A stretch of 64,000 bases of DNA from Candidatus Omnitrophota bacterium (GTDB lineage Bacteria; Omnitrophota; Gorgyraeia; Gygaellales; Profunditerraquicolaceae): assembly GCA_028716965.1 (NCBI GenBank), contig JAQUOV010000003.1, forward strand, positions 140,756 through 204,755. The letters run 5' to 3'. Below the pieces are notes generated by a model. It was not told the DNA's origin. It was given only the letters and a program-made list of their open reading frames with translations, and searched no databases. Positions 15,001 to 48,061 of this stretch are shown piece after piece; the stretch's first letter is position 1, and the number at the start of each line of letters is the position of its first letter. A program made the translations under genes and the position numbers.

Positions 15001-18000
15001 TGATTTGAGCTATAAACTCTTGCCTGCGCTTTTCCGCATCCTTCTCTTGGGCCTTCATCTTTCTGTCAGGGTTTATCCGTGCCTTTTTATCTTGAACAGG
15101 ACTGGAGACCTTACCTGCTTTCCTGCCTTCAGCGCTGATCTCTACTATATCAACCGGATTCTCAATAACCGCAGCTACGCCCCTGCCTCTTCCTGCTTGA
15201 GATTTCTCAGAATACCAGTTAAACCTCCGATTATTTTGCCACGCTACTCCAGATACAGGCTTTATCCGCTGGATGGGGCTGGAAGGCCTATGGCCATGAT
15301 AATTTATTGCCCTGTCAGTATTGTCAAAACTCCCTTTTGTCCCACTATTCTTATTTTGACTGTAAATACCAAGCTTATACGCCAATATGCCTCCAACAGC
15401 ATAGGCTAAAATATCGTATATATCAGTATTCACGCCATATATCTCAATGATTGTCAATATGGTAAACCCGGCAAGAGTCGCCCAGCGAGTAGCTTTTTTG
15501 TTCATAAATATTAAGTCAGCGGTGCCGTTAAAATCACACGGAAGGGCTCTTAAAATATCAGACACCCTTCCTGTGCCGGAAATCGTATTTGCAAATCCCT
15601 TCAATAATCTCAAGAAGAACAGGGTCATAAAAACAAGCAAGGGGACAGATAAGAAATCATTAATATGGTTGGTCAATACCCAGCCCCATGAGGAATGCTT
15701 TAAAGGTACGTAGAAAATCTTTGCGATCAGGAATGTTACGGCGGTAAATATCGAAGTGAAAGCTGCCGGTTTAAGATACCTGGAAACATTGCTAATGGAT
15801 TTATTCTTCAATCCTTCGTGAAGTTTAACCAGATAAAAAACAGACATTGAGAAGATTGCCGCAAACTCCAGTCCAAGCAAACCGGTCTTTGCTCCAAATA
15901 TGCCGCCTATAAGGGTCGTCCAGCCGGCGAAGTTGGCCAGGTCTAATCTCTTCCTCTCGGGGAAACCATGGCTTTGGTCAAATTTATCCAATAAGAAGTA
16001 CATCAACGGGTATAATACCCACGCCCACATAGCAATACTCAATGGCATAATGAATAACATCAATGTACGCATTATGCCATTAACCACCAAGCTTTGTGCC
16101 AAAGGCTCAACGTTGGCCGCCCAATAGGTAAATCCAAAACCTAATAATACTCCGGACAATAGGAAGAGGCGGATAGAGGTTTTCTGTAGCAGCTTTGCTC
16201 CTCCCAAAACCATAGCAATTGTAAACCTGCTTAAGAAAGACCTCTCTTTTGTTAAAGCCGAGGAGGCCTCAGATGAAACATTATTGAGGCCTCTGGCTTG
16301 TTCCGTTAATCCTGTAGACGGGAATGTTATTGCTGCGTGCAGCAGCAATGCAGCCAATGACAGCGCTGGTATTAGCGCCAGAGAGCTCTTCCCAGGAATC
16401 AGCGCGGCCATTGCGAGTATAGACATGGCCGTTAGCTTCATTAATAAGGAAGAGCCTGATATGCCCATCGCCATATTTTGCGGCTGCAAAAACCGTGTTG
16501 TCCTTCTTAAACTCGACGATGTGGTCAAACACCAATTCGTTAAATCTGATAGGGGACATGATGCACCTCCTTTTTCTTGTTGTATCGGGGGCAACAGGGG
16601 GATCATCGCCTGGAGGGGGCGCCCTGCGTCCCCCGATGACAACAAAACCACTATCTCACACCTGCCACGGTAGATGAGATTAGTGGTTGGTTTAAAATTT
16701 AAAATGTTTTCCGGAATGATTACGATATTTCTTGCCTGGGATTGTTTCTCTAAGGAAGGGACAAGAATACTTACGCCATCTTCATTAGGCGCATTAGCCT
16801 GCATAATGTTGCGCAGGATCAATAAGCTAAAGCTTATGATGAAACCTAAGGATATTAACCTTATCAGCTCATTACCATAAACATTGGCAACTAAACCCGT
16901 GGCAATAGATAAGAAGCCAGTGTTAATAAACTGATTTATTATGAACCCATAATCATTGCTTGTATGCCGCTCTGTCTGATCTCCTCTAGTCTTCTTAAAA
17001 GGTACTGAGTCTCTAAAGCCTTTAATTCCTCTATGAATTCCAGTATCTTCAATGTTTTGCTCTCTGTTAGGTTTACCATTTTCTCCTCCATTTTTAATTA
17101 CTTCTTCGTTCAAGGTTGATCCGAACCCGTTGTTGAAACTAATAGGAGGAGCCTGTGAATTAACTTCGCCGATAATTCTTTCTTCCGGATGGACTTTAAT
17201 TTGCTCACGCGCCCTGGAATAAATATGATATTTGTCAAGGAATCTTATTAACGCGTTTAAGAATGAAGCGGCCGGCTTGTTAACAGGAGAACTGGTGGCT
17301 ATTACAATTCCTACCGGCATGCTGCTTGCTGATGCAGGCACTTCACTAATTGGAGAGGAAGGAGCTGTTTGGGGATTTACTTGGTCCCTGATGTCTTCCG
17401 GAACCTGGTTAATGTATTCCGGAATCGCATGGAGAACATCTTTGAATATATTAATCGCTCCTTCTTTATCACCTTTATTATATTTAATCATGCCAATCCC
17501 AAACTTATCTTCATTAAACTGAGTAAGCTTGCTATTCCTCTCTTCGAACATTAAGCTTTCATATACTTCCCATACCTTAATGGCCTTATTATCTTTCCCC
17601 TGTTTAACATAAACTTTATAAAGGATAAGGTATGCCTCAGCGTAATCAGAACTTAGATTAGTGGCTTCTCTTACGGCCTTGACTGCCTCATCATATTCCC
17701 CTGATTCTAAGTGTTTTTTGGCTATCACAACATAATCCTCTGCCGTAAGTTGTTTCTCCGCCCCTGCTTCAGCCTCAACTGGCGCCTGCGGCACAACAGG
17801 CTGCTCTTCTAATTTTACAATAAAGTCATTCTGTCCTGCAATGGCAGATAAAGGATAAAAAACTTCATTGCCATTCACATTCAGAACTACTGAAAGGACA
17901 ACCTCGCTATCATTGTACACGCAATCTTCCACATCCAACACCACGCCTGTTACTGTTTCCTTACCAAGTATAAATCTTACTTCCTTCCCTCTAAGCTGCG

Positions 18001-21000
18001 TAAACTCTAAGTAGAATACCCTTTCCTTAATTGCCCCTCTTGCTGCCTTGGGAGCGCATTCCATAGCATCCTCAAAATTAACGCTAGCCTCTTCGTATTC
18101 ACCAAGAGCCCACAAAGCTTCTCCGTTTTCACGGAATATATGATAGGTATCCTTCTTAAAAAAGTTCAATTTCCTTATATACCTACTAAGCCTTATCGCT
18201 GCATAGAATGCTCCGGTTGCTTCCTTATAATTGCCATTACGCAGATATGCTGTTCCTAAGCGATATAAAGCTAACCTGCTATTGGGGTTCAATACAGTTA
18301 TCTTGCTATAAAGGGCTATGGCCTGCTCAACTTTTGTCTTCCTCTCCTCGTCGTTATCCGCCTTCTGCTCTTCTTCTTCGGTTTTACCCGCTATCCTCCA
18401 AGCTGCACCTTCCAAAGCCTTCCTTACTTTATCGAAAGCTCTTCTATCTAAATAACCGCCTAAGGAGAACGCGTTCAAAAATGTATATGGCCTGAGTTCT
18501 TTCCTTAGCGCTTCTATATCTGCTTCCGCTGCTCTCAACTCATCTAATGTCTTCGCCTCTTTTAAGCTGTTGATAACCCCATAGGCTTTTTGCCTGAAAG
18601 TTAGCGGTTTAGGCACCTCTGGAGATTTTTCCTCTGCCGCTTCTTCTGCAGGAGCCTTCAAATCGCCTTTATCCTCCTCTGTTTCTGCCTTTGTTTTCCT
18701 TGCTTTAATAATCCTGATTACTCCAAGAATACCTAACCCAATAACCGCCCCTGTAATTACAATAAGGCTGATTGTGACGGCTGTCTCGGAGAATCCGGTT
18801 AACTGGCTTATATAACGAATATTCTTAGTGGCCCAGGATACCTTCTGACCATCAGGAGATTTTACCTGTTCAGATTGCTTGATTTCCTTTTTGCTATCGG
18901 TTGGTTTCTTGGGTTGCTCTGCTTCTTTCTTCTCTATTTTAGGTACGGGTTTTTGCTCAACCGGCTTAGTTTTTTCTTCTGGCGCAGTCAGTTTTTGCTT
19001 ACCTGCATAAATCTTCTGTTGAGGATATATGAGGTCGGGATCCTTTATATTATTATCACTGGCCAGCTTTCCTACGCCTTCGGGATATAGGGCTTTGTAG
19101 TCGTATATGCCTAATGCCTTGGCATCAACTGCAATGCCGCTAAGCGTATTCTCGGCAGGCCTATCCGACCTCCAGTTCTTCGTGGCCACTACATAGTGCC
19201 CCTCTTCATTATGGAATTTATGCCCATATTTCGGCCCGACAAGGGAATCTTTATTTAACGGCCCTTGCTTTGCTGCTTCTTTGGCTGAATCTTTAGCAGG
19301 AAACTTTGCTTTTATTTCTTTAGGTGCGGGTAACTCTTTGGGTTGCTGCTTAAAGGCTGATTTATTGCTATCTGCATTCTTATCAGTTGCCGGATTTGGT
19401 TTAGTCTTATTACCGGCAGGCATGCCGACAGCTTTATATTTCTTGCCATCTGCTTTAAAATCCCAATGCAGCGCTTCAGGAGAAGGACGGCTATCACGAG
19501 CTTCTTTGCTTATCTTATCTAATTTACCTGTGGTATCTTGTTTAAAACTGGATTCTCCTACGTTCATCCCCCCATCTACCGCTGCTATTGCGGGGTTTAC
19601 GCCATAAGCAATAGCCGCTACTGAAACCCCTATTAATGCCGTAAGCACGGGATGGCGCCTAAACCAGCCAAATATACCTGAACCTTCACTTATTTCAATC
19701 TCTGAATTTACTCTATCTAAATATAACTCAGGGAATGCTTTTTCGTGGGCGTCTTCAAAACCTGTGGCTTCAACCGCTATTTCTTTTCCAGAAGGATCCT
19801 CAAGAATCCAAGTTTCGGTAGCTTTTGAATACTCTATGCTGCTTTCAGGCGGACCACGGCGATAATGTGCTTCCGTGTTTTGAATACCAAAATTAATCTC
19901 TCTACCCGCATCAATGGATACTGCTCTATCGGAATTCAATCCTGTGTTATTATATATAACTCCCAGAGGGCTTGACCCTCCGCAATTGCCGCCGTCTCCG
20001 GCGCCTGTTGCCCCGGTTGCGCCGCCGCCCTGTGAACCGCCGCCGGTTGAACCTGCGCCTGCTCCACCTTGCGCGCCACCGGTTGATCCGCCGCCTTGGG
20101 CCCCACCGCCAAGCTGACCAACCTCCATTCCCTCCATCTCTTCTTCACTTAGCTCAACTTCTGTATCAAAATACTTGTCCTTAATCACTTTTTCTGTAAC
20201 TATAGTTACTCTCCCCGATGCGTCAGTTATCTCTGAAATATGAACCTTAAGTAATCTCCTTTCACCATTATCGTTATCAGAATAGCCATACACATAATCT
20301 CCCTCAATTCTTTCAAATCTAAAGAGATGCCAAATCCCTCCTTTAGTTTTATATACGATAAATACCTTGTTAGAGATCAACTCGGCACGGTCCCTTAATG
20401 TGTCCGCGCTAATCCTGAATGCAGTCAAAATGACCCCTGTTACCTCTTTGACCACTTTTATAAAGTCGCTTAACCTCACCAGATAAGAACCGCTAAACTT
20501 TTTAAGCCATATTCTGAAATGATCGTTTACTTTTTCTTTTTGACCCTCATCTTCTAAAATAGTACCCACTGCACAGTTACCTATAGCCTTAAATTCACGA
20601 ACCAATTGCTTCATTGCTTCAATGCGATACGCCTCTCTCTCGGTATAGCTAATTGAATCCCAGTCCTCTCCGGCATCCCGGGACAACTGCCTACCTCTTT
20701 CTTCAATCATCTCCTTTGTAATATAATCGCCGCCTCTGGTAACAAACCATTGTAAGTGTTCAACTTTCCTGGCTTCTTGTCCTAACCTTGTCTTTAGTTC
20801 TCCTACTTCTCCTTTTAGTTCTCCTACTTCTCCTTTTAGTTCTCCTACTTCTCCTTTTAGTTCTCCTACTTCTCCTTTTAGTTCTCCTACTTCTCCTTTT
20901 AGTTCTCCTAATGTTTCACCTTGTTCTTCTATGGCTTCACCTTGCTCTTTTATGGCTTCTTTTATTTCTCCTATTGCCTGGCGTTGCGCCTCTACCTCTT

Positions 21001-24000
21001 CAACCAATTTTGTCATTGCTTCCTTTACGCCTTCTAACTCACCCCTTCTAATACTATCTATTAAGCTTTCTACTAATTTTCTCCTTTCACTCTCTTCTTC
21101 CTTTATTTCTTTAAAGGCGCTCTTCAGCTCCGACTGCACTTTTAAAAACAAGGTCAAAGCATCCAGCCCTCTCTTAATCTTATCTTCTATAATATCGTCA
21201 CTCATTGCCTCTAAGAATCCGTTAATCATATTATCTGCGGCAAATTCTTTCAGGAAATTCTCACTAAGAGCAATATTGTCTCTGCTTGTATCTAATTCTC
21301 TAAGGCCTCTCGTTGTTATCCCCAAAAGTACAAAAGCCCTCGCGGCAAAACCATCGGCATGTATCCAGGCATCATCTTCCAAGAATTCGCTTTCTTTCAA
21401 TAATCTATATGCTCCTTTATGATATTCCTTCAGCTCAAAGTCAGACTTTTCCCTCTTACGGTATAATTGCTGAGCTACTAAGCGCCACAAATTATTCCAT
21501 ATTCTTGGTAAATCATCTGCAGAAATTGGTGAGGATGAATTGACGGGGATCCCAGACACAAAACGTCCGCCATCTGTTTTTTCAAGCGGTTTTAAGGCAA
21601 CACTCATAGAACCACTGGTTTCTGTAGTTTCTTGACCAACAGCAGTCTCAATAGCCCTTATGGTCGCTACTACATCACCTAAATCTCTTCCGGCTTCTTC
21701 AAGCCTTGTACCTATATTACTGGACGCACCTGCTGCACCCTGCCCTTCTTCTCCATTTCTGGAGGTTGCACTCTGGGCACCTGCATTTAATACATTTCTT
21801 GATTCTATTACTACTAATGAACCTAATTTGCCTCTCGTATTTAGAGCATCAAACTCTGAGAGAGAGCTCGATGTGTAAGCAGTAGGCGGGCCGTGGGCAG
21901 AAATTGGACCAGCCACTATAGGAATTTGTGACGTTATATCACCTAATTTGATCTCTCTTGAACCAAGTACTGGCATAATTGCCAAATTTCCATGTATAAC
22001 TGCCTGTTGTATTCCTAAATTGCCAACTATAGAGCCAACAATAATCGGGTTAACCCCGCTTATAGGCGTTACAGGCGGAGCCATAGGCCCAGGCACGGGC
22101 AGGCTTTCGGTATCATTAACCGGTGAGCTAGACTGGACAGGCCCTATATTCTTCTCCCATAGGCCTTTCAGGAATTTACCAAATTCACTCTTCTCAATTT
22201 GTCTTAGGGAAACATTATCACTCCAAATGATCTTTGCCGTTGCCGGCCAATCATTTCCCTGCGACTTCAAGTATCTAAGCTGATCAGTATACGCTTCCTT
22301 TTCCAAAGGATCCGCAAAATAGCCTTGTAGATTATCCGGAGAAAGGGTTGAAACAATGAACCTGCCCTCTTTCCATTGTTTATAATGCCTTAAAACATGC
22401 ACAATAAACGAGCGATTAGAAGCATTATCCATGCGAAGCATATCTTCAGTGAACAATATGGCATAGCCTGTGCCTCCGAAGATCTTTTTCAGTATCTTCG
22501 CGGTCCAATCAGTAAGATATGCGCTGTCTAATCCGTTCTTCGCCGCCTCTTTCCCTATTATATTGGTATTATGGCTTTGTTTAGGAGGGACAGCGAATGA
22601 CTCAACAAGCTCAAAATCGCCCTCTCCCTTTCCAAGTAAATAAGCCCCTAAACCTTGCATCAACTCCAGCGGGAGCACTGCGATATTTACTTTATTTAAT
22701 TCTGAAACGGTAATACCCAGGTTGGTTTCAATGAATTTAACGAGAGCGGGATCATTACGCAGCTTTTCCTGTAAATTTACTTCTTTTATTTGAGTAAGCA
22801 GTTCATTAAGCGCCTTTTTCAAAGCAGCGCTTTCCGAAGAAGAAACTCCTGCTAAAATAGTATTCGGGAATAAAGCAATCCCCAGTGCAAAGAGGCCTAT
22901 TGTCTTAAGGAACTCTCTGCGAGGTAATTTGCGTTTGAGCGCGTCTATTATCTTATTCAGCGCCAGAACGCTTTGCGGAGGGCTTCTTTCGGCCTGCTCT
23001 CTGAGCATAGGCGAACTTACCGGCTTTGCCTCCTGCGGCTTAATCTTTTCCGGCTGCCTCATAGATTTAGGCAATTCAGTTTTTCCACCAACCCCATTAC
23101 CATACCCTGCGTCCTTACCTATATAAGCGCCACCCTGACCTTGGCCAATGCCTCCTTTGCCACTAATTAAATTAGGATTCAAATACAGCCTCTGGAGGTC
23201 CCTAATCTCACCCATAGTTGAAACTACCACATCGGTTCGGCCGGAATCTTTAATAATCTTGGCCACAGTATCCAAATATCCCTCTGTCGTTGCGACAATC
23301 ATCGGAGATATCTTTTCAACACCTACTTCACCGCGTATATCGCCCTTAATATATCTTTCTTGCTTAGGAATACTGCCTTCTCCTAAAATGACAATAGGTA
23401 TTTGTGCACGCTTCTCAATCTTAGCAAGCTCAACCCTGCCTTCTTCGGTTAACTGCAATTGATTAAATCTCTCTTTTAACTGCGTAAGATTCTTCAGGCG
23501 GCCCTCAATTGCTCTTATCGTTTGAGCCAATATTGATGTTTCTGTATAATCTTCTGCTTTAAGCCTCTTCAAAGCATCTTGCATTTTATGCATTGTTCCA
23601 TCTATATTAGAAGGAGTTATAGCATTCCCAACAGATTTATCCGCATAGTTGATGGCATTGCCGACGTATCCTTCATTCTCGCCTGTCAGGTAATTTAACC
23701 CAAAGCGGTTTAATCCTATTGAAGAAATAAGATCTTGGTTAAGCCCTGTTTCGCCTCCATTTTCGCCACTCAAAGGAATAATGCCTAATTCCGCAAGTGC
23801 CTTTCCAGGTAATACTCCAACATTTAAGATACTCTCCAGGCCTGCTCCATTAGTCCCATGGGCAACATAAGTTACGTTTTTATCTTCAGCCATAGAAGCT
23901 GCTGTTCTTTGAAGATCCAACTTCTGAATATTAGACGAGCTTACCTTTTTTATTTCTGTGCCCGGGATTAATGCCTTAATCGCATTCGCCACCACTTCAA

Positions 24001-27000
24001 GCTGTTTCTGTTCGTTAAATTGTGCCATCGCCGAACTGGCGGACGCTGGGCTACTACCTGTAAGCTTTTTGGCTAATTCACCAATCAACTCATTTGCTGC
24101 TACATTTTGACCTTTACCTATATATTCAGCTACCCTATTAATAACTCTGGGATTAATCGCTAAGTCGCCATTATTTCTTGCTATATCTTCAACAGCTTTA
24201 GTTAAAATTATCTGGCCTACGTCTTTAAAAGCTTCCTGAGGCAATCTTTCTAATAAACCTTGCAATTGATCAAGCTCTTCTTGACTGTTAGCTTGTTGCA
24301 CTGCGATCTTAAACCCATTTACTCGCACCATTGTAGGTGGCAACGGATATTCTTGTTCTTGAGGCTGAAGGCGTTCGTGTACTATATTTATTGCTGACTG
24401 TATCTCTGGCTTCTTTTCATCCGGCGCATATTCAAGCGACTTCTCAAGGGCGGCTAAAGCAGAAATGTGGTCTCCTGCATCATAATAACCACAACCAAGA
24501 TTGTAATATGTAATATATGTAGACCTCCCTATACGATTGGCTTCTTCTATTACCCCTATCGCCTTTCTATATGCTTGTATACTTCCTTCTTCATCCCCAT
24601 CCTGCAGTCTTGCAAAACCGAGTTGGTGCCAAGCTAACTCGTTCTCTGGCTGCAGATTTACGACATTCAAATAAATATTCCTGGCAGCTTTATAATCTTT
24701 CTTGGTTATTGCAGCCTTACCTTTGGAAATAAGCTTCTCAACTTGCCTTTGCTGCAGGCTCATTGTTACTTTATCGCGAAGACGCCCTAAAAAGCCTTTA
24801 TTGGCTTTTTCTTTTAACATTCCTTGAGCTATTTCGACTACCGCTTCCTCTTCAGAGCTAGCTTGCGGCCTCTCCACTCCTATTGCCACTTCTGCTTCAG
24901 GACCGGCTTGAGGCTTATCCGCTTCTATTACCACTTCAGCTTCAGGGCCGGCTTGCAGCTGGATATCTTCGTTCACGGTTGGCTGACCTGCCGCTGCTAA
25001 ATACACATTCTGTAACTGCTCGGGATCGATATCTTCTGCTAGCGTTCTAAAATCAAGAAAGCTCTTGCGCGCGAACGGAGTCATAGAACCAAGATTGTCT
25101 TTTGCCACAACTGAATCTATTACGTCTTCGTTATCGGCATTACCGATTTTTAAACGCTCTATGCCTGCGAGATAACCAAAATAATCGCAGAAGGTATGTG
25201 TAATTTCGTGGAAAAGCGTAGTCCCCTTTACGTCTTCTCTCCACTGATGCGGTTCCAGCAGCACACCGTTAGTAGCCGGGTCAAAGAACAGCTTCAGATT
25301 CATCCTTATCAACCAGTTAGGTTTAACATCGCCTCTTCCAAAATCATCGCTCCTGCCGTTAATTTCCACTTTTTCCTGGTCTTCATAAGGAAGCACTTCT
25401 ATCTTTACCCTATCTGCCATCTTCGGGTCCAAGGTGCTATAGAAATCTCTCAAGGTAACGGAGTCTTTATCCTTTAAAACTTCCAATCTCGCGACAGCTT
25501 CCCAGCTTCTCGCCAACTGTTCTTGCTTTGCCTTGCGGTCATCGGCTTTCCTCATTCCCTTGGCTATCTGCTCTTCTTCCTTTAAGATTTCTTTAAGTCT
25601 TATTATCAAAACAGGAACAATCTTTTTGACATAATTACCGCCTATCGAGCCGAAATATATCTCTTTTTCCAGTTTATTTTTTAACTCTCCTGACGCATTA
25701 AAAAGCTCTTGCGGATAATCAATCAATCCCTGCATATACCTCTGCATCATCTCCGCCCTAAAATGCGGCGCATACCAATCATCCATTTTACCCTGGAGGC
25801 CGACATGATAATTTAACCATTCATATGTCTTTAGCGTCCTTATAGCCACCTGATGCTTTTCTCTTAAAGACGGGTCGGCTTCTAAAATATTCCTTAATGC
25901 CTGCATCGACAGGCCAAAATCGAAGTTCTCTTCATTGTAATCCACTCCTAAGATGTCAAACAGCCCTGTCAAATTGCCCTTAGATTTGTTGACCAGCCCG
26001 GCCATTACCTTGTAGCTTCTGAAATACCTATCTCTTAGCGTATTTGCCAGGATGTACCTTTCTACCCCTTTGTAACCGCTGATATCGGCAACGTTATTCA
26101 GGAAAACCCCATACCTTTCCTGGTTTTTCTCCAATTCCTTATCGCTTTCCAAAGCTGCCTGCGCATCCGCCAGATATTTTTTGATGGACTTCGCCTTTTC
26201 CTTATCCAAACCCGCCAAGAAACGGTATCTAAGCTTTAATTGATCAGCTTCTTCTTCAACATTGGTCTGGAGGTATTTCGTCAAAATAATCTCCAGTTCT
26301 GTTGAGGATAACGCCTTCAGGCTGGACTGGCTAAACGATGAATAATATATAGGTAAGATTACCTCTTTTTCAAAGTTTGTCTGGTCGCGGCTATCTTTAA
26401 GCGTGACCTCTTCAAAATAATCTCTGATCTTGCGGTCTTCGCGCAGGACTTTCGAAAATAATAATCCGTAAGCGGCGGAATAATAAGGTAAAGCGAAATG
26501 CGCTTCCTCTTCGGCAATGTTAAATTTACCGAAAGCTTCCAATGACTGCGACAGGAGGCTGCGTATATTACGGCTGGTGGAAAGCTTGTATTTATCGAGT
26601 TCCAGGGAATTCTTATTGTTAATCAAATCCGTAATCATGGCGGAGAAATTATTCACAGCATGGGTGATCTGCGCTGCCCGGCTTTCCGGCAATAGATTTT
26701 CTTTGGTAATGACCGATTTAAAGGTATCAATGGCATACACATATTTTTCGGGGCTGCTTAGGTAATCCAGGACATATTCCGGTTGAGATAAGAATATGCT
26801 GACTACACCCTGGCCTCCTCTAGGGTCATTCATAGCCTGGTTCAAGGCGCTTTGCGCTTCTGGAGAAAGCGTATTATAGACGCCTACGGCATTTTCTATT
26901 GTAGAAAAATTATAATTGGGGTTGATTAATGAAACCAGGGCGTCCGCAACAGTATATCTGCTGACTGGAGCGCCATCAAGGAAAGGAATGCTGAGGAATG

Positions 27001-30000
27001 CTTCTGCGTCTTCTTGAGGATTTATTATTTCATTTATAGTAGTGAGCAAACCGTGGTAATCGTAGACGATTGTTTCAAAATCAATGTTGCCGGTAAATTG
27101 CTCTATAATGTTTCTTAAGCCGAGCGAATGGTGTTCTGCGGTGGTTACTGAATTAGGTAGGTATTTCAATACAGCATTAACAAGATGCTGCCTTGCCTCA
27201 GGCGCGCCCCTTGAGCCATTAGGAATGTTTCTTAAATATTCTATTTTACCTAATATTTCCTGTCTGGTTTTCAAAGGCAATCTTGCAGCTTGTCCCCCCT
27301 GCGCATTGCCGGCTGTATTGGCTATGGCGTGCTCTATCAATTGAAGTAAGGGCATATGGACATTAGCGCTAGAGTTCTTAATTTCTTCGGTATAGATATT
27401 ACGCAGAAAATCCAGCCTCTTGGCTACCTGCGCTACTCCCATCAGACTAACTGCATGTTGTAATGACCAGCCATAATTGGCGTCTATGGCATCATAGCTG
27501 GCATCAGCCTTTACCTTAGCTGCTTCTCCCAGAATATGCTGAGCATATCCTTTAAGAAAAGAGGACATCTGTGGGTCATCGATTATCTCTCTCATTGTGG
27601 TTTCTATCTTGGAGGCTGACTGCCTTAAAGCTTCTTTTACCCTTACCTCGGGTGACTGTCCGATATCAGCCAACTCCAGATGATAATTTTCTTTATATTC
27701 TATGGCTTTCTTAAGCAAGTCCTCTATCTTTGCGACTTGCTCTGAGGTCTTGGCCTGTTGAAGCATATTTTTTAACTGCTCTATCAGCCCGCGGGAAATA
27801 GCCGCTTCCCCAATCTGGAACACTAAGGCATCGGAGATATCCAAGCCGTCTTTCATGAGCGCACTGCGCTCCAATTCTCGGGCGTTGGCATTAGTCAGCT
27901 TAAATGCTTCCATACGCTGATTCAATTCAGTCTTTGTAAGGCCAAAGACATTCTGTTCCGTCAACTTGCTCTTATCATACAATACTATTCTTTCACCTTC
28001 AGTCACGCCGCTTCTTCTGTTCCTGTTTATCGCCTGCACCAGGTCGGAATGTCCCCAATTATGCGCATCATATACGATAACGTCAAATTCGCCTTTATAA
28101 TCAATGCCGGTTGCCGCCCTTTCGTTAGAGATAACTATCCAGTCTTTATTCTGGCCGATGCAATTTTGAATCTTATCATTAATTTCGCCGGCTGAGGTGC
28201 TTTCATTAATAGGGATAATTTCTTTGCCTTTGAGTCGAGGCTCATCCGTTATCCTAGCTTTTAAAGCATTCATGGCTTCGCGGTCTTTTATGAAAATCAG
28301 CGTTGCCCGGTCCTTTATTAAGGTAGGCATGATCTCAGCATAAGCTGTTTCGCCGGACTTAGGCTCAACTCTCGCCGTCTCTAATCCTTTTGTATCTCCG
28401 GCATTAACAAAGCCTTTGCCTAAGTTAAAAAGAAGCATTGTCTCAACCGCATTCAAGGTACCTGAAGCGCCTAAGACATCCGCACCCTCTTTAAATCTTA
28501 AGACTTCCGATAAAGTAGCCTGGGAAGAAGAAGCAGAAGTCTTCAAATTACTCCTAATTGCCTCCATATCCAGGCCTGAATAGCCTAATTTCTTTTGTAC
28601 TTCAGGATCCGATAGCCTGGTAAAAGCCGCAGCCAGGAAATACCTGTCGCTGAATATCTTGCTTACTTCGGCATTGCCTTTTTCCCGCGGGACAATTTGA
28701 TCTTTTATATCTTTTTCGCCTGCAACTGTCCACCTGTTTGTGTTCCTTGCCTCAAAGAACCCGCCGATTTCATGCGTACTTAATCCTTCCTGCTTTAAAA
28801 GATCTATTGCTGCGCGCGTCAACCCCCATTTCCCATCACTATCCTGATAAAATAAAGATTTTGTTTCGTGATTGTCTCTGGCATATTCTAATGCATCTTT
28901 TGCGCTTGTTTTATCATCCTTTTCCCACGCCTCAGATGCTGGTTCTAATTCACCCTTATTCATAAGCTCCGTAATCTTTTTGTAAGCCTTTTCAGCGCCT
29001 ATGATAAACTCGGTCTGCAATTTAATTGGATTTCCTGCGGAAAGTATATAGGTTATTTTATCAGAGAAGGGAATATGGAACTCGTCAAACCTGACGAAGT
29101 CCTGGTTGATAATCCTGTCTATCAATGTCGACTCCTGGTTCCTGTTGCGCAGATGCCCAAACTGCTCCATGCTGAATACCGTAATCGTATTGCCTTCACC
29201 TAACTTGTTCTCTAACCCACCATTGTTTGCGTTAGATAGGGATAGGTCATCACCGTTTGCCAGTTCCACCCCGAACATTTTTAAGAATTCCACCATATTA
29301 GCGCTGCCTTTATTGCCATTTACAGTAGACTCCAATTCTACTCCATCTTTTACAACTAAAGTCTGATTAGGTATGTTACCCATCTTCCTTCCATACAAAT
29401 AATTAACCAACATTTCCACCAGGTAGGCATCGCTCTTGCCGCCTCCGGCAGTAAGATGAACGTTAAATCCTTCCTTTAAACCGAGGATCATCTTTAGCTG
29501 ACCGGTTACTGTTTCTTCTTTATACGCTTTAGATGGATCTTTCGCCGCCTTTTCTATATTGTATTTAGCAAAAGCAATATAAGTAGCAAATACCAAAGGC
29601 ATGATTTCTTCTTTTGTTATCTTTACGCTATTTTTATCTTCGCCTTTAGCAATGAACCGGCCGATGAATTCTTCCAACCTGGAAACATCGGCATTCTTTC
29701 CTAATAAATTCTCCTGTTTTAACTGCTTAAGATAAGCATTCAAGTTATCAACGAAATCATTAATTTCCTTTTGCTTCTCCTTAGCTATCGGTTTAGTTAA
29801 TTTGCTTTCATTGAATTCTGCCATTACATCCCCGCTATCTTTGCCAACTTTCATACTTAATACACCTGATTCAAAGTAACCCCTATATCCCTCACCCTCA
29901 CCTTTGATCATACGCTCAGCATAGCGGCTTCCAATCTGAGGAGAGAGACGCGCCAGTACAGGGATCAAAAGATCAACCTTCTCCCCCTTAATGTTTAATG

Positions 30001-33000
30001 TGATCACCCTGTTTTCTTTCTTTCCCCCTATAACTTTCTCAATTTCTGCTCTTCTATCATTTACAAATGTGGCGAGGTCATCGAATTTCTCCCCTGATTG
30101 CCTAAGCTCATTCTTAAAGTCTTGCAACTTTCCTTCCATTGCTTCAATTTGTTCCTTAATCAGCTTTTTCCTGCTGCTGTCAATTTCTTTAGATAGATTT
30201 TCATTTAACAATTTTATATCCTTAAATAAACCATTAATCCTGTTTAATTTGGCGGATTCACCAGCTACTTTCAGAAGAGAATGTTCCTCTAAAGCCGCCT
30301 CTAATTTTTTTACGGATAATTTCTCCAATTTCTCCAGGTGGCTTGCCGACAGCATATCCAGAATGTCCTCTACACGCTCTATAGGCTTGGAGGCGCCGTT
30401 TCTTTCTACGTAATCTAACAGATGCCGATCTTTAAATGATTCTAACGCATCTTTCTCTCCCTCAGAAAGCTCCACGCCAAACCGCCGGTTATAAGCTTCA
30501 ATAAGCTCATCGGTTTTCCCTTCTCTTATCCCTTGTAAAGCGGCTTTCTTCAGGAAATCTTTTTCTTCTTTTCTTAACTCACCAAGTTTTTCATAAGGCT
30601 TCCCTTCAAGATAGGCCTTTTGCCAAGCCTCGTTTGCCTTCCAATAATCCTTGTTATAATCTTTTACGCCTTCACGGCTGGCATTCTCCCTGGCTGTCTT
30701 TATTCCCTCAACCAACAGCATCAAGTGCTCGACTCTTTGATCGCGTAATTTTTCATTGGGTATTACGCCTTTTAAATTATCTTGGAACTGCCCTTTGATT
30801 GTCTTCAGGTGCTCTTGTTTCTGTTCAGTAGTAGCGGTAACCGAAACATCAAGATTTACTCCATTCAGCAGCCTTCCCTCTGAACGCTCTTTATCAGCAA
30901 CTATTCTTGATGCTTCAGTAAGAAACCTGCTGTTAACAGGCAGTTCTAATTTTACCGTTTCCTTGCCAAAGGCAAATTCGATCTGACGACTCTTCCCCAT
31001 AACATCCTCTAATGACTTATCGCTGTCTTTCATTAATCCTTCGGCTGAGCTACCGGACATAAGCAGTCTCTGAAGCTCAATACCTCTTTCTACGCCCTCC
31101 CTTACCCTGCTTAAGTCATTATATGTTTCTTTAGACAAGACTTGAAAATCACCTAAGGTATCCTTACCAAGGATTTCCCGCGCATTGTCTGTAGCAGGAT
31201 TAAAATCCGGCTTGAGTTCCTGGGCCGCTATTCCTAATGCCTGATCAATGACTTTCCCTACTTCCGCGATGTTAGCCTGGCTGTTTTCTGATTTACCATA
31301 AATTCCTTCTGCTTCGGAAATTTTATCCAAGAACTTCTGCGCGGCATCGAATCTTTCCAGATAAGTCTGCTTTAACATGGAAGTAGTGCTTTCAGGGCGA
31401 ACACCTTCCGAGGCGATTTTCGCGTGCTCTGCGCTAAAACCAAAAACATTCTGCAATACATTTTCTGTCAGGCCCCTATTGGTCTGTTCAAAAGAGGTAT
31501 AAATATAGCCCTGTTTTACCGCTTCCGCAAAACTGCCGGCTTCCCTAGTTGCGTTCATCCAACTATGGAAATTGTCTTTTTCCTTGCACAACTGCGCTCC
31601 CAGCCGCTCACCTAAGGAAGCCTCGTAAGTCGGCACCATAAAGAAAGGAAGCCAGTTGGCGTAAGATTTGACGCCTTCTGATATATAACCTGCGCGCTGA
31701 TAATTGACAATTTCTCCGTGATCATTATAAACCGGATTAGTCTTTGATTCAAAACCAACCCAATCACCGACTTTTTTATCTACAATATCAACCACAGCGC
31801 TAACGCCGGTCACAAACCCGGGCATCCAGAGTACCGAAGAATCCACCCAGCGCCCGGCCGCCATCAGGGTATTCGACAGGTTTATCTGTCCCAGCCTGAT
31901 ACCGTCGGCAAATTCAACTCTATCTTTCGCAAAAACTGACCTTACGATATTAACAGCCCTTTCCACTAAGCCTCCGGAGGTATAAATAGGGCTGGTAGCC
32001 CAGGACTCAAGCGAAGGCTTGGCCTGGAACAGCTCGATCATCGGCTTCATCCACATACCTGACTTCGGGCCTTCTATTGCCGAAAACGCAAGATCACCGG
32101 CTATCATGGTCTTAAAATTAATGTTCCCATTCTCAGCATACCCTGTTTTCATCAGCCAGGTACCAGGATTAAAAACTGAGAAATTATTGATCATGCCCTG
32201 CATTGCAGGAGAAACCTCTCCATTATAAAGACCAAAATACTTTGCTTTTACGCCTTCCCAAAAAGCTCCGCCAAACGTAAATGCCGGCGATACTACTGTC
32301 CACTCAGCCGCTCCTGCCAAGGCGCGGTAAAATAACAGGTTAGGGCCGCTGAAAGTCCCCAATTCCAATCCGAATAAGGTTCTCACGGGTTGCGCCGCTG
32401 TTGCTTCTGTGGCTACCCCTGAGTATCCTTTTAAAACATTGCCTATCTGGCTACCCTGCATACCTAAATATATTCCAGTTGCTCCACCCATAAGACCATA
32501 ACCTAAGGTGTCAGAGAAAACTCTCTTACCCCAATTATCGCTCATCGCATAATTAAATGCCTTTGGATCTCTAATTCCAGCCAAATAATAATTAACGCCA
32601 TCCTGCGCAATATTTACGCCTGTTCCTGCAAAGACGCCAGTAATTCCGCCATATACAAATCTGCCAAGCATTGCTGAATCGCCATAACGCGTCAATATTC
32701 CCCTACCTACTCCTTGAGCAAAATTAGGTATGAGAGCACCTTTTGGCGTAAGATTGCCGACAGGCGTGCTAAAACCCCATCCCAAAGCAGCACCAATGAT
32801 TCCACCTCGCACATAATTCCAGGGATTAGAATATGCGTCAGCAACGCTTTTCCCGCCCAGAAGCACTGCTGCCAGCGGAAAAGCCGACATCCCTGCGCCT
32901 GTATAGGTGGCCATAGAACGGCCTAGTCCCTGCATTCCAAATCCTGTTAGCCCGCCGCCTAAAATTGATAATCCATATGAAGACAGTTTTGCCGCATCCA

Positions 33001-36000
33001 AAGAACCATCTTGTCTGAATAAAAGATTCTGTCCGGAGATGATATTTGAGCCAACGTTCATACCTAAATTAAATCCTGACACAATGCCTGCTCTTACCAA
33101 GGAAGATTGTGTCAAAAGGCCTGCGCTGCCAAAAAGCGCGCCTGCCGCTGCACCGGCACCAAAACCTTGGCCATATAGTTTGGCCACGCTCAAATAGCTC
33201 ATATCAGAGCCTTGTCCTTGGAACGCCGCCGCAGTAGTTCCGCTCAAAGCGTATATCTGACCACCGGCAAGCGCTTGAGAAGTAATACTCGTCAAGAGCC
33301 CACTCCCAAGTAGGGTTTCTCCGGCTGCCACTTTGCTGGCAATGGGAATACTTGCTCCCGCGACAACCAAAGCGGCATTCACATCCCAAGGCAACACCCC
33401 TGCCCAAATTGATTCCAAGCTTAAACCGTTATTATAAACAGATGCCCCAATACTGACTGCGTTGGGGATACCCACCGTGGCTATCTCATTAAATACAAAT
33501 GAACCGGCTGCTCTTTTGGCAGCTTCGCCTACTGTCCCCCGGGTAATACCTCCCGCGACTCCGAGCGTACCAACCGTAATAACAAGCTGAGCGCCGGCAA
33601 GCCCCAACTCTAAATTTGCATTTTGAATCTTATTTTCCAGCTTTTCTTGGTCCGGGAGCGTAATCCCGCGTATCTCTGCATCATATAGCTTAAGCTGATC
33701 GTCCACAATCGTTCTGGCAAGATTAGAATGCGGGTCATCTTGAATAGACATTGTAATAGGATTAAAATATTTATTGTTACCTAAATCAACAGGGTCCCTG
33801 CCAGATATTTGCGCGAAACTATCAACGAAATACCTAAAACTCTCCACTCCCCATTCCTTATTGTCAGCAGTAATAGCCACAATAGATTCACCGCCGTTAT
33901 AAACTGCTCTAGCAAAACCAACCACCGTGTTAACTAAAGACGCCGGTATACCAAAAGATATAGGCCTATCTTCTGCAAGTTTCTGAGTTAAAAGCACTCG
34001 TGTAAAGTTTAAAGCTGGATCGCCGCCTATATCATCTTCTGACGAAAGTCTAAAGTCGTAAAAAACATCTTTCATCTCTGCGATAACATCCTGATTATAA
34101 CCCATTGCTGTCAATCCATTCTCCAATAAAGGAGCCCAATCATGTTTAATTTTTGAACCTTCAAAATACAAATTATTTTGTAACATTTCACCCGTACCAT
34201 AAAGATTAGAAATCTCTGTACCTTTTTCAGTTAATAACTTTATCTCCGGAGACTGTAAATATCTGTTATCAAGGCGGCCATATTCATCTATTGGTACACC
34301 AGCAAAATTTATGCCGGTAATATTAGCGCCCGAGAGCCGCGCAAAAGTCATCCCCTTATCTACAATTGTCTTATCTGTTGAATCTCTCTCTCCAACCTCC
34401 ACTGGGTCAGTCCAAATCTTTCCTCTTAATACAACCCTAGCCTCAGCCGTATCTGCTCCTGGCATCAAAGTAAATCTAAACTTCAAGGCGCCTTCTGTGC
34501 CTTTAGAATCTGCGGGAAGTTGCGAATTTATCAACCACATGCCTGTTTCAGTATCCTGTCCGATTGCTTTGTAATAACTTTGAGGCCCATCCATCCCGGC
34601 ATTCTGCGCCACCTGATCAGGATTAAGCCTTAGACCGCTATCAGATGGTTTTGCAAATCGCACAGGCAAAGGAGTAGAATCATTTTTCATGACATAAGGA
34701 TCCTTTAAATCGTGCCATTTGCCATCTGAAGTAACTGAATATTCTCCTTTTTCTAAGGTATCCATGATTTTCATATTAAAACCATCCACAGGATGCTTGT
34801 AATATGCTGTAATGTCTTTGGTTGCGATGAAATCGCTGTTTTCTTTGGTAGCGCGTATCTGTAAACCCTGATTATTTTCCTGGTTGATGAGCTCTGTACC
34901 CCCGCTTATCAAAATACGATCATGCAAAGGAGTAGAAGTATAAGAGCCGTCTTCAGAGATATACCTAGTATAAGCACTGGTAGTATTGAGTTGCAGAGGC
35001 TGCTCTTTACCTCCGGCGATAATGGAACCAAACATAAGCTGGCCGTTTGCCTGAGGAGTCATTCTCCAAGTATTGAGGCCTCCGGTAACTGCGGCTGCGG
35101 TTGCTAAATCCTGGCCTACACGATTACCAAAAATATCATAACAGGCGGGCTTACCTTCTTTAGGGGTAGTATAAATTACACTCTGTGCATTCTCGGGGGT
35201 ATTGGTTACTTTATCTACCCTTGCGAACGCTACGTTTGGATCTTCCCAATTTCCAGTTTTTGCAAACGTTACCGGAGTTATTCCTAATTCCGCTGTTAAG
35301 TTGGTCCCTTCATAATTTATCGGACCACTTAAGCCAAGCGAATGAAAATGTTTCTGTTCGAAATTGAACGTAGATAATCCTTCGGGATCAGAAAATACTA
35401 CGCCTTCGAGTTTATTGGACTCATAGTATTCTGCAACTTCTACTTCCCTGCCAAGGACTGTTTTATCAGAAAAATCAATATTAATCTTACCGGAGTCTGA
35501 TTGCGCTCCGGCTATTCCCCCATCTACGCCAGGAACCGCATTAAACGAGTCCAGATAACGCGGGCTAAAAACTTTTACTTCATCCTTTTCGTTAAGAAAA
35601 ACTGAATGGCCAGCTATTTGGGATACGACGCTGTTACCATCTATAGTTTCTATGGAATAAGACTGCTTTAAGGAAGGATAGAGATTTAACCCTAATTTGA
35701 TATCTTTTGTGCCCTCATCACCTTTCTCTAAAGAACTTACATGCGCGATAACCTCAGAGCCTGGCTCAATAGACATATCAGTAAGCAAATTCCCATACCA
35801 GCTTGTTCCATTAACTAAATTGTCAACCACTAAGTCTTTTCCCAGCGCCTGCTCTAACTTCCCCCTTGCCCATGTAGAGACATACTCTAAAGTGGAAACA
35901 TCTCGAAGAGACCCTAGGCTTGACCATAATGAACCTTCTCTATCAGTCTGCCAAGTTACATAATTATTGTCTCCGATATCTACTGTTTTAGTATCGCTTC

Positions 36001-39000
36001 CACCTTCAACCTTACCACTCGGATTATTAATAGCAACAAAACTTGTATCGTTTATTTTACCGGTCTTAGGGGCCCTATTATCGCCTTTATACGTATTGTT
36101 TGCATCCGGAGTAAAAATTAAAGAAGACTTGTTGGAACCTGCGCTATCAGAGTTACCAGGTAATACCCCGATAGCCTCTCCTAATAATGCTGCCTGCGGC
36201 CAGTCAACTTCTTGAGTATTTATTTTTCCGATTTGTGAGGAAACTTGCGCCAACAAATTAGACGCTCCTCGATAATCTCCATTACCCATGCGATCATACA
36301 TCTCATTTAAGGAACCTTGTATTTCTGGGTTTTGCTGATAAATAGGATTGTTGGCGACTTTATCTGTCAAGATACCTGCCTGAGTCTCAAGCGACTTTTG
36401 TGAAGAGAGGAGAACCTTGTTGGCCTGAATCTGAGTATCGATTTGGCCCAATGTTACTTGAGCATCCTTTAACTTGCCATTATTTAATTGGTCTTTGGCA
36501 ATATTAATTAATTGCTCATACTTAGCATAATTTTCAGAGTCTTTCTGCTTTAAATCCTGCGCATAATTATTAAGATTAATCAGAGCGTCCTTTTTAATCT
36601 TATTATTATTAGCAGCAATCTCGGCATTGCGGGCCTTGATCTCAGAATTACGGACATTAATCGCTCTCCTTAATTCGCTAAATCCGTTTTCCGCATCGCT
36701 TAAAGCATCGTAATTATTTAGTTTCATCTTTCTGGCTGTCTCTTGATTACGACTCAATACAGAAGTAAGCACGAATGTGTCTCCTACGCTTGTATAATGC
36801 CTGCCAGTAGGATTACCTATAAACTTGACCCCTGTGGGCCTGCTTATCTCACCGTCTTCAACTGTAGCCGTGTAATCCTCAAGCGGCTTAAGTTTTCTAC
36901 CATCGTTCAGGTATACATTTGAACCTTGATATTCATAGCTTAAGCCTTTTGCACGATTGATTATATTGAAGCTGGCGATGTTTCCGGATTGATCAGTATT
37001 GATAATGGCGGGCATTAAACCTTGCGCGGTCAGAATTCCTTTGTCATTCTCAAAAGCCTTGGCTTGGCCTCTATGGTCCAAGGTATAACCCAAAGCATAA
37101 GAAGCTACTGAAGGTGCCCCACCTATTTCTTTCCCGGGTTCCACCAAAAATGGATTTTGGACCAGGTAATGTAGAATCGGAGTGGATTCTCCCTGGGTAA
37201 GCCTGGTATCCTGGGCAACTATCCGTTTTACCTGTTCACCTTCCCCATTTTTATTCTGACGAATATTAAAGTCCATGCTTTCGGCAAAATTAATTCTTCC
37301 CTGGGGCGCCTGCCAGCCTGTTTTATCATTGTATTCCTTGTATACTACCAGCCTATCCACAGATGTTTTAAGAACACCGTCTTCTTTTGTTAACACTGAA
37401 AATACGCGTGCCTGACTAAGCTGGGTATCAGTAAGCATGCCTGCGCTTTGCTTGGAAGAACCCAGGACGCTTTCAATCTTGCCGTTATTACCGAAAACCA
37501 GTTCAGCTCCGTGAATAGTATTACCCACAAAATTTGCGGTGCTCACCTGATTACTTGCGGTGATCTGAGTTACCAGCAGATTTGTAGTCCCGATATTGCC
37601 CTGCCAGGTTACATTATTATCAACTGTGTCGCCTTTTCTTATATCGCCTACCCCGCTCCATCTTGCGCCGGGACCAAAGGCAAGAGCGGAAGAAACAGCC
37701 ACATCTACCGCATAATTACCGGCTTTATCCCTGCTAAGAAGGATTGGGAAGGTACCCTGCCCTAAAGCGACAGCCTCTTTGTAAAGCTTGCCTTCCCTTA
37801 CAATTGTAGTCCCTGTCAAGTTCATATTTGTGGGATTGAATTTTATTCCTCCAGCAATAGCTTCCCTTTTTCCCGCCATCATCTTGCCATCGCTGACTAC
37901 GGCGGGAACAAATGCTTCGCCTTTTCCCACAAAACCAAAATCGCTGCCTCTTCCCAATACTGACTCGGTATTCAATGCCCCGGTGCGGGAAGTCATGCCT
38001 GTAATAACACCTTCCTTAATTATTCCAGTCCCAAGATTCTGCGAAGAATAAGTACCGGTGGCTGTACTGCTGCTGTATCCAATAATTCCTCCGTTAGCTC
38101 CGGAGAAATTTATCTGTCCCGAGGCGTCTTTAATGGAATCCTTGACGCCATTAGCGCTCCCTACAGCATTAATATGCTCCAATCCGATATTAACATTGGT
38201 GACGCCTGTGTTTAATGAATAAAGGCTGAGTGATGTTCCGTGGGTTTCAAATCCTGCGTTCTGCCCGGAAATCTTTGCTATACCACCATAAGCAATTGAG
38301 CTGGTAGGGGTTGCGGTAGGAAAAGTCATCCTGCCCTGGTTAAGCAACATCTCTCCGCCGCGGCTTAAGACTACTTTATAAGCATCATTAAAACTTCCGG
38401 TATCTACATGCCGCGATTGAAACTCCGGCGTAGCCCCGATTCCATAAAGCTGTTGTCCCCCATATCCGTACACAGTATCACCAGGCATCATCTTGGCGCC
38501 GGTAGATAAATCCCAGGCAATATTATCATTACCGCTCAAGCTTACGCGTATAATATTATCCGTAACATTAAAAGCGTTATATTGGCCATGTGGGCCTTCA
38601 GAAGCCCCTCCTGATTTATTACCCTCAACACTAAAGGATTTGTTGTTCTGCGCCGCATTAACATAGCTATCGCCTGTAACATTAGCCCCCAATGCCTGTT
38701 TTGCAGCAACCGGAGAAAGGCTTATCATCATATTAGCATTTTCCGTAGTAAATGCCCTGCCGGCATTAGCTTTACCACCCATAAAGCTTACCAGGACGCT
38801 TTTCTCTGACAGCCCATCTTCTTTGGCATAGCCTATAGCTACAGGGTTAACAATCTGCCGGGTACCCAAATCAACCAGGTTTCCATTTGCCGTAAGGCCA
38901 AAATCTTGAGAAGCAACTATTGATCTCGAGGATACATCGCCAGTGGGACTAAAACGAGTCCCGGCAGGTATGGTTCGCACGACTTGGCTGTTATCGGTGC

Positions 39001-42519: not shown

Positions 42520-42554
42520 TTATTTCTCTCCTATACGCATAACCCTAAGAACTT

Positions 42555-44682: not shown

Positions 44683-44691
44683 TTAACCTCC

Positions 44692-46074: not shown

Positions 46075-46076
46075 AA

Positions 46077-46349
46077 CTACTCTCCTCTTAAAACCTTATC
46101 TTCCGTCAGCTCCTCCGGTTTATGAACCGGCCACTGCAGGGTATAAGTATCAGAGGATGTCCCCGCGATTACCCTGCCGGCATTATAACTCTGCTGGCGC
46201 TGCACAATCTGCTTATTTGCCCAGAACCATATCTGCATTATCGCAGCAAACAAGAGCACTATCCCGGCAAAAACAAATGCTATTTCAATCATGCTTTGCG
46301 CAATTTCATCGCGCTTTAACTTTTTTAACCCTAAAACGGAGTAACCCAT
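46077..46349 (-). CDS. TadE-like pseudopilin
   Basis: RDEIAQSMIEIAFVFAGIVLLF matches the TadE_N consensus. Confidence 0.6.
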   Translation of the reverse strand: MGYSVLGLKKLKRDEIAQSMIEIAFVFAGIVLLFAAIMQIWFWANKQIVQRQQSYNAGRVIAGTSSDTYTLQWPVHKPEELTEDKVLRGE

Positions 46350-47540: not shown

Positions 47541-47541
47541 C

Positions 47542-47886: not shown

Positions 47887-47896
47887 TTTCGCCCCT

Positions 47897-48061
47897 TTAT
47901 CTCTTGGATTCATTTAATTCCACCTGAATCTGTTTTAAGCGCGCGTTTATGGAGCGTTGTATATACTGGCGCATCGCCAATAAGGCCGTGACAATAACCA
48001 TAATCAGCATAGTATATTCCAGAAAATTCTGTGCGCGCCTGTTGTAAAAGGTATTTAACAT
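47897..48061 (-). CDS. Small Flp-family pilin, 54 aa (below the ORF-track length cutoff)
   Basis: Hand translation: MLNTFYNRRAQNFLEYTMLIMVIVTALLAMRQYIQRSINARLKQIQVELNESKR; GGGGAG/AAGGGA Shine-Dalgarno. Confidence 0.6.
   Translation of the reverse strand: MLNTFYNRRAQNFLEYTMLIMVIVTALLAMRQYIQRSINARLKQIQVELNESKR

Follow-up and report, generated by a model that had tools for sequence, protein, structure and literature searches.

A two-RecA ATPase module in a giant open reading frame

The window analysed here is a stretch of 64,000 nucleotides from a Candidatus Omnitrophota bacterium (assembly GCA_028716965.1, contig JAQUOV010000003.1, positions 140,756 to 204,755), and the subject of this report is an ATPase module, related to the protein-translocation motor SecA, that is embedded in a giant gene on its minus strand. 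The minus-strand frame from 40801 to 2 is open over 13,600 codons without a stop, with an ATG at 40798, and defines a giant open reading frame (ORF) of at least 13,599 aa from that ATG (2..40798, minus strand), whose C-terminus lies beyond the window start. Residues are numbered from codon 40801, so that the ATG is codon 2. An ORF artefact was ruled out, 13,600 stop-free codons at 43% GC being impossible by chance.

Five peptides, said to lie in the middle of this protein, had been read, from the letters alone, as the successive motifs of a SecA-like DEAD motor. All five occur in that order in a single minus-strand frame:

29458, minus strand: HLTAGGGKS, residue 3782
29185, minus strand: ITVFSMEQFGH, residue 3873
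29086, minus strand: DEFHIPFSD, residue 3906
28097-28132, minus strand: ISNERAATGIDY (motif V), residue 4224
28007-28042, minus strand: LVQAINRNRRSG (motif VI), residue 4254

The module does lie inside the giant ORF, as predicted, but 'middle' is a loose word for its place: of the 13,600 residues that are visible, it falls within the first third, the C-terminus being beyond the window. The span originally flagged (28000-29470, residues 3778-4267) covers the catalytic core only; the family profile described below spans residues 3753-4349, and a conserved helical extension continues to about residue 4480. Scanning the visible giant protein with this profile identified a single copy of the module (residues 3753-4349) and no further copies. 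A two-RecA ATPase of superfamily 2 (SF2), with motifs I, II, III, V and VI, occupies approximately residues 3741-4300, and Pfam Helicase_C matches residues 4163-4265 (27.2 bits against a gathering score of 23.5, E 5e-6). Its parts are as follows:

29039..29581, minus strand: first RecA-like domain, resembling nucleotide-binding domain 1 (NBD1) of SecA, residues 3741-3921, with Q motif, Walker A, FGHLRN and Walker B
29432..29455, minus strand: Walker A (motif I), LTAGGGKS, residues 3783-3790, K3789 invariant, aligned to SecA MRTGEGKT
29138..29185, minus strand: ITVFSMEQFGHLRNRN, residues 3873-3888, the counterpart of SecA motif ITYGTNNEFGFDYLRDN by hhalign
29075..29086, minus strand: Walker B (motif II), DEFH, residues 3906-3909, D3906 and E3907 invariant
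28526..29038, minus strand: insert of ~170 aa between motifs II and III, residues 3922-4092, where SecA has its preprotein cross-linking domain (PPXD)
28442..28525, minus strand: return strand and motif III, SQATLSEVLRF...LGASGT, residues 4093-4120, matching SecA ASITFQNYFR...LAGMTGTA
27932..28441, minus strand: second RecA-like domain (NBD2-like), residues 4121-4290, with Helicase_C, aligned to Thermotoga maritima SecA 408-608
27362..27904, minus strand: conserved C-terminal extension, residues ~4300-4480, kept in 16 family members

The NBD1-like domain shows alternating β/α elements in an AlphaFold2 (AF2) model, and its partner in hhalign is SecA residues 85-225. G-H-L-x-N within the ITVFSMEQFGHLRNRN region is kept across the family, and DEFH is followed by TYILSAG, matching SecA TPLIISG. 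The C-terminal extension carries the motif S-x-A-L...REAA-x-SR-x-x-IE-x-LK-x-M and is helical where the AF2 model reaches it; it may be an analogue of the SecA scaffold.

Searches with the module alone yielded very little: phmmer against PDB sequences and a comparison with NCBIfam returned no match, and a word-index search for homologues returned one fragment only. A profile of the module and this one homologue gave nothing meaningful against PDB. Conversely, an exhaustive HMMER search of 1.84 billion representative proteins with the same profile recovered 55 relatives, 33 of them with E <= 1e-10. These 55 are representatives at 50% identity and make up a well-delimited subfamily. Many belong to sequences, whole or fragmentary, that run to thousands of residues (7,803 aa in the longest); the shorter ones look like fragments and show no other Pfam domain. 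Ten weak matches without any SecA or helicase Pfam domain likewise look like fragments of giant proteins, and no canonical SecA was found among the weak matches.

We aligned 21 full-length modules, which show 21-40% identity to the window sequence and a mean column identity of 26%. The only columns invariant in these 21 sequences are K3789, D3906, E3907, two Gly (one of them in motif III), Q4256 and R4260. Because the invariant columns are the catalytic ones, selection appears to have kept the ATPase active, and the residue pattern indicates that the module is a catalytically competent SF2 ATPase.

Relationship to SecA

The 21-sequence profile was compared with all PDB sequences, and three chains of T. 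maritima SecA came first (E 4.4e-7), with collinear matches at Walker A, in part of the preprotein-binding domain, and over a stretch that runs from motif III across NBD2. Behind them ranked Mss116 (E 1e-4) and SecA2 (E 2e-4). Searched against 5.8 billion word-indexed proteins, the family profile retrieved one family member and a canonical SecA, designated P0057 (E 2e-4), of 847 aa and carrying PF07517, PF01043, PF07516 and PF02810. Pairwise hhalign comparisons of the family with SecA and with other SF2 proteins gave the following probabilities, E values and aligned columns:

Canonical SecA P0057 (residues 85-540): 97.0%, E 1.2e-10, 422 columns
Two-sequence SecA profile: 96.7%, E 3.8e-10, 425 columns
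Escherichia coli SecA: 87%, E 3.8e-6, 322 columns
E. coli RhlE: 60%, E 8.6e-5, 102 columns
E. coli RecQ: 21%, E 1.1e-3, 128 columns
E. coli DeaD: 14%, E 2e-3, 101 columns
E. coli DinG: 8%, E 4.3e-3, 85 columns
E. coli RapA: 3%, E 1.3e-2, 96 columns

The alignment with P0057 is collinear from the Q motif to motif VI, by way of the preprotein-binding domain, whereas each of the five non-SecA proteins from E. coli aligned over one domain. Each of the five peptides of the original prediction was paired by hhalign with the SecA motif that had been named for it. The motif pairs, window first and P0057 second, are:

GQLKMILGLKEGFNVHLTAGGGKS, paired with a stretch of SecA P0057
ITVFSMEQFGHLRNR and ITFGTNNEYGFDYLRDN
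DEFHIPFSD--KITYILSAG and DEVDSILIDEARTPLIISG
SQATLSEVLRF...LGASGT and ASITFQNYFRM...LSGMTGT
ISNERAATGIDY and IATNMAGRGTDI
QAINRNRRSG and QLRGRAGRQG

The AF2 model built on the 21-sequence alignment reached a mean pLDDT of 78.5 and a pTM of 0.63; a model built on the two-sequence alignment was unusable (pLDDT 46). In a Foldseek comparison of the usable model with PDB, ranks 1-17 were all SecA or SecA2, the best being 6itc_A (E 2e-13). The top TM-scores, 0.60, 0.58 and 0.54, belonged to SecA bound to SecY, and those of non-SecA helicases ranged from 0.34 to 0.47. Structure prediction and comparison thus agree with the predicted SecA-like identity, and profile and structure methods alike link the module to SecA instead of leaving it a generic P-loop without SecA/SF2 topology. 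Together, the alignments and the predicted fold indicate that the module is related to the SecA DEAD motor by a distant homology, but one specific to SecA.

Membrane context and proposed role

The remaining features of the giant protein, and the gene cluster next to it, are:

40643..40735, minus strand: N-terminal signal-peptide-like or anchor segment, residues 23-53, from hydropathy and direct reading
40001..40255, minus strand: Peptidase_C39, residues 183-267 (Pfam E 1.3e-8, 35.2 bits against a cut-off of 22)
24992..33484, minus strand: conserved core of ~2,800 aa, residues ~2440-5270, which holds the ATPase module
~24419-24634 and 17573-18343, minus strand: TPR blocks, residues ~5390-5460 and 7490-7740
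9947..22900, minus strand: ~14 strongly hydrophobic segments, residues 5968-10285, from hydropathy scans
9044..9331, minus strand: SLT lytic transglycosylase, residues 10491-10586 (Pfam E 1.4e-26)
4109-4219, minus strand: PG_binding_1, near residue 12195, further downstream of SLT (Pfam E 4.8e-7)
41446..59529, minus strand: complete cluster of Tad/Flp type, for a pilus or for secretion, immediately upstream of the giant gene and on its strand (Pfam)

The visible ORF contains about 15 hydrophobic segments. SLT and PG_binding_1 are positioned past the last strong transmembrane (TM) helix, in the C-terminal part of the giant protein; both must act outside the cytoplasm, and this part fits a peptidoglycan-degrading exterior portion. 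The ATPase, for its part, needs cytoplasmic ATP. The nearest strong TM segment lies 1,619 residues downstream of the module (residues 5968-5986), with six K/R on the module side and two beyond, and homologues retain TM clusters downstream of the module. Across 14 homologues, the first strong downstream TM segment is flanked by 35 K/R on the module side versus 12 on the far side, with the bias present in 11 of the 14 (binomial p = 0.029), which by the positive-inside rule would place the module side in the cytoplasm. At the N-terminus, a K/R-rich stretch precedes a hydrophobic core (V36-L46, 11-13 residues), P47 and the putative cleavage site AQA|V, all conserved in the close relative L002 (see below).

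The start of the conserved core contains conserved Gly/Ala-rich, moderately hydrophobic segments (residues 2399-2560; 33122-33607, minus strand), which coincide with a local GC maximum (0.47) at 32-34 kb. These segments may be unconventional membrane segments, and could supply an extra crossing that reconciles the signal-peptide-like N-terminus with a cytoplasmic module.

We propose that the module is a cytoplasmic, membrane-tethered motor that handles polypeptide during biogenesis of the giant protein; that both halves of this proposal hold, the SecA-type identity and the export-related role, we consider about evenly balanced. That the motor is cytoplasmic, takes polypeptide as its substrate and acts in cis is in each case what we infer. 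The motor would be tethered at the inner membrane through the hydrophobic segments of the giant protein itself, with the core of ~2,800 residues as a cytoplasmic segment bounded downstream by TM helices. The insert and the second RecA domain would together clamp unfolded polypeptide, which cycles of ATP would feed or hold during membrane insertion and export. Its likely substrate would be the ~9,000 downstream residues of the same chain, with their ~14 TM segments, lytic transglycosylase and peptidoglycan-binding domain, or alternatively a partner protein; the export route could be SecYEG or the neighbouring Tad-type machinery.

Several observations weigh against this proposal. Even at E <= 10, the Pfam models SecA_DEAD, SecA_PP_bind and SecA_SW have no match in the window protein or in the 21 family members; SecA_DEAD (PF07517) is accordingly absent at its gathering score, and the profile-HMM comparison suggested in the original prediction found only generic families, Helicase_C in seven members, DEAD in four and ResIII in three, with Helicase_C_2 also seen. 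In motif V, the Arg of SecA (GRGTD) and of DEAD-box proteins (ARGID) is replaced by T or A (AATGID). The ~170-residue insert is collinear with the SecA PPXD when the whole module is aligned by hhalign; when it was compared separately, the best local match fell on the core of the PPXD in each of three tests, but without significance (E 0.12-0.25). The SecA scaffold with its two-helix finger, and the wing (PF07516), were not detected; the extension compared with the C-terminal half of SecA reached only E 0.3-1 in hhalign. On the side of the role, the look of a cleavable Sec signal peptide would, if considered alone, imply that the 5,900 residues behind it, and with them the motor, lie outside the cytoplasm. 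The evidence on topology consists of hydropathy and K/R counts only, and the topology based on hydropathy is internally contradictory. Finally, the connection between motor and export is one that we infer.

The AF2 model shows the insert as mixed helices and strands (pLDDT ~65-90), and the insert is not clearly included in the structural superpositions; its homology with the preprotein-binding domain of SecA is plausible. As a candidate for the SecA scaffold and wing, the extension was rejected at the sequence level on the hhalign values above; a profile covering it matched nothing in PDB, and PF07516 has no match in the window protein or the 21 members. Pfam gave no match to the zinc-binding SEC-C tail (PF02810) in residues 1-5000; this tail is not universal in SecA. 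Canonical SecA needs the two-helix finger and scaffold for translocation and, because neither was detected, the canonical push mechanism is not simply transferable to the module. The module is thus not SecA in the family sense, but a motor of SecA type joined to a C-terminal partner domain of another kind.

The same departures from SecA would suit a SecA-derived ATPase with a job other than export, such as a cytoplasmic remodeller or switch that unfolds the giant chain or partners and presents them to the N-terminal C39 peptidase, or that controls assembly of the 2,800-residue core. Undetectable finger, scaffold and wing, the presence of a C39 peptidase on the same chain, and the location of the module in a large conserved core instead of beside a TM helix, 1,619 residues from the nearest strong one, all agree with this possibility. 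However, no alternative substrate is positively supported, TM clusters downstream of the module are retained in homologues, and the export-related context is conserved, with the Tad cluster upstream and periplasm-acting enzymes downstream, so we regard a non-export job as rather unlikely, if still to be reckoned with. We think it unlikely, too, that the module is a generic nucleic-acid helicase or translocase of SF2 (an RNA helicase, say, aiding transcription or translation of the very long mRNA, or a DNA-acting domain) whose SecA likeness reflects only the shared two-RecA core. Such a view could appeal to the Pfam matches, which are confined to Helicase_C, DEAD, ResIII and Helicase_C_2, and to the alignment of the RhlE C-terminal domain at 60% probability. 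Against it, SecA tops every ranking and alone is collinear across both RecA domains and the insert (322-425 columns, up to 97%), the SecA-specific motifs FG..LR.N, DE....TxLIxxG and QATLSE..R...G.SGT are shared, and Pfam and PDB profile searches revealed no nucleic-acid-binding accessory domain in the conserved flanks.

A signal-peptide-like N-terminus with an AXA site, conserved in L002, and a secretin-containing cluster upstream would also be compatible with export of the N-terminal ~5,900 residues, motor included, by way of the signal peptide and the Tad-type secretin. The motor would then belong to an injected effector that runs on prey or host ATP and unfolds, extracts or threads prey polypeptides, in effect a protein-translocation motor used as a weapon; the predatory or parasitic lifestyle proposed for Omnitrophota (PMC10066038) counts in favour of this scenario. 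We nevertheless deem it improbable, for it is without precedent, the K/R bias in 11 of the 14 homologues puts the module side in the cytoplasm, and the Gly/Ala-rich segments at residues 2399-2560 could reconcile the two topology signals. Least probable of all, to the point of being hardly credible, is a decayed, non-catalytic relic serving as a structural spacer. The very high divergence within the family (21-40% identity) and the loss of the motif V Arg might suggest decay, but all 21 sequences keep the Walker A Lys, the Walker B Asp-Glu, a Gly of motif III and, in motif VI, the Gln and Arg, the pattern of a working ATPase, and we rejected an inactive relic because the invariant columns are exactly the catalytic residues.

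Known systems, related loci and neighbouring genes

The SecA-type motor proposed here shares with canonical SecA (E. coli, Bacillus subtilis, T. maritima; PF07517, PF01043, PF07516) the same two RecA-like SF2 domains, the order of motifs (Q motif, T-G-x-G-K-[ST], FG..LR.N, DE + TxLIxxG, ATLxE..R...G.SGT, motif V, Q..xR..R) and an inserted domain at the preprotein cross-linking position, canonical SecA being its best match by profile and by structure. It differs from it in its low identity (~13-19%, under every Pfam SecA threshold), in the lack of a detectable scaffold with two-helix finger, wing or SEC-C tail, and in the missing motif V Arg. The hosts differ as well: canonical SecA is a soluble protein of ~850-900 aa, whereas the module is part of a membrane protein of >13,600 aa. 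SecA-N68, the isolated DEAD motor (PDB 5k9t, 3bxz), has a deregulated ATPase and cannot translocate; it is an artificial truncation, and the window module has instead a conserved helical extension. SecA2 proteins, specialised SecA paralogues that serve particular substrates beside the housekeeping SecA, rank high in structural and profile searches (Mycobacterium tuberculosis 4uaq, Clostridioides difficile 6sxh) but, unlike the module, stand alone, keep the scaffold and are recognised by Pfam SecA models. With DEAD-box RNA helicases (RhlE, Mss116, DDX family) the module has in common the SF2 two-RecA core and Helicase_C, yet only the C-terminal RecA domain aligns (~100 columns, <=60%), the DEAD-box SAT motif is missing, and a large insert between motifs II and III is foreign to DEAD-box proteins.

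The original prediction held a translocation-type motor inside a giant protein to be unexpected, whereas the same domain type, and the same hypothesis, had already been published for giant proteins of Omnitrophota (bioRxiv 10.1101/2023.11.21.568195). In most of these proteins there are divergent forms of the SecA DEAD helicase and preprotein-binding domains, with scaffold and wing missing, and these domains form a long-branched clade apart from the housekeeping SecA of the same genomes; the authors suggested that they may serve self-export of the giant protein, and noted that secretion genes of a type II-like kind frequently lie close by (West-Roberts et al. 2023, bioRxiv 10.1101/2023.11.21.568195). 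Such SecA domains also occur in some actinobacterial giant proteins (bioRxiv 10.1101/2023.11.21.568195; bioRxiv 10.64898/2026.06.07.730766). A 2026 preprint describes a PF07517 architecture group among long proteins of Omnitrophota and discusses the topology of these proteins as unresolved (bioRxiv 10.64898/2026.06.07.730766), and Tad clusters and giant ORFs were documented across the phylum by Seymour et al. (PMC10066038).

The window module shares with the domains of West-Roberts et al. the phylum, a giant, TM-rich host protein with a C39 peptidase and cell-wall-degrading domains, nearby secretion genes of the type II family, the lack of scaffold and wing, and very long branches. Conversely, the published domains are recognised by Pfam SecA models and the window family is not. 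By description, the SecA domains of the published Dockerin- and Archaeovorin-type proteins come after TM anchors near the C-terminus, unlike the window module, which sits in the N-terminal third, ~1,600 residues before the first strong TM segment. The domain type and the self-export hypothesis are therefore already published, and the window module is a new example, more divergent than the published ones, with which it was compared by description, because Pfam SecA models miss it. For the same reason, surveys based on PF07517 undercount such motors. The existing picture is unchanged: a SecA-derived motor built into its substrate is the only concrete mechanistic lead to the way in which cells might synthesise, insert and export single chains of tens of thousands of residues. 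The residue positions mapped here offer a basis for the design of constructs and mutants of the motor.

Related genomic loci were searched with the two-sequence alignment, and all four that were found (L002-L005) are in metagenome-assembled genomes of Candidatus Omnitrophota, in each case inside a giant ORF. The four giant ORFs have the conserved core in common, with 31-56% identity in BLASTP comparisons against the giant protein, and profiles of the core flanks (residues 3100-3740 and 4290-4800) had no significant match in PDB. L002 is a close relative, in which the first ~750 nt of the giant gene, corresponding to the signal-like segment and the C39 peptidase, are ~96% identical in DNA (window 40001-40798, minus strand, against L002:259-1100), but the ATPase module is only 61% identical in protein. 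The comparison is a mosaic: residues ~700-1500 show 76-94% identity, hardly any similarity is left over residues ~300-650, and ~1,570 window residues (1483-3056) lack a counterpart in L002. This pattern suggests that recombination or hypervariable cassettes may operate within the giant gene. In the related Omnitrophota contig CAKKQB010000017.1, a frameshift interrupts the giant frame inside the ATPase module (L004:11314-11422, equivalent to window residues 4165-4167, within NBD2), which could reflect a fault of assembly or a gene that is really split. As for the C39 peptidase region of the giant protein (window 40001-40420, minus strand, residues ~128-267), the Pfam match spans only profile positions 46-128, and ahead of the part that it covers, at about residues 133-145, there is a candidate catalytic Cys motif, GKPCGSKALYDF.

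The Tad cluster upstream of the giant gene comprises, together with several ORFs without a Pfam match:

58603-59529, minus strand: SurA-like peptidyl-prolyl isomerase
57727-58599, minus strand: RcpC/CpaB
56111-57718, minus strand: secretin fused to TonB_C
53939-56101, minus strand: ParA/TadZ-like domain fused to a T2SSE ATPase (TadZ-TadA fusion)
48231-50009, minus strand: two T2SSF genes
44692-46074, minus strand: TadE/G-like protein

Both the secretin-TonB_C and the TadZ-TadA fusions are unusual. An ORF for an IS200-like Y1 transposase (52920-53540, plus strand; Y1_Tnp, E 5e-18) lies inside the cluster, between the Tad ATPase gene and a 547-aa ORF without a Pfam match. Beyond the cluster, a divergent signalling operon (60287-63930, plus strand) encodes a FIST sensor, a histidine kinase (HisKA and HATPase_c) and a fusion of a response regulator with GGDEF; it is possible that this operon regulates the adjacent Tad and giant-gene locus through cyclic di-GMP.

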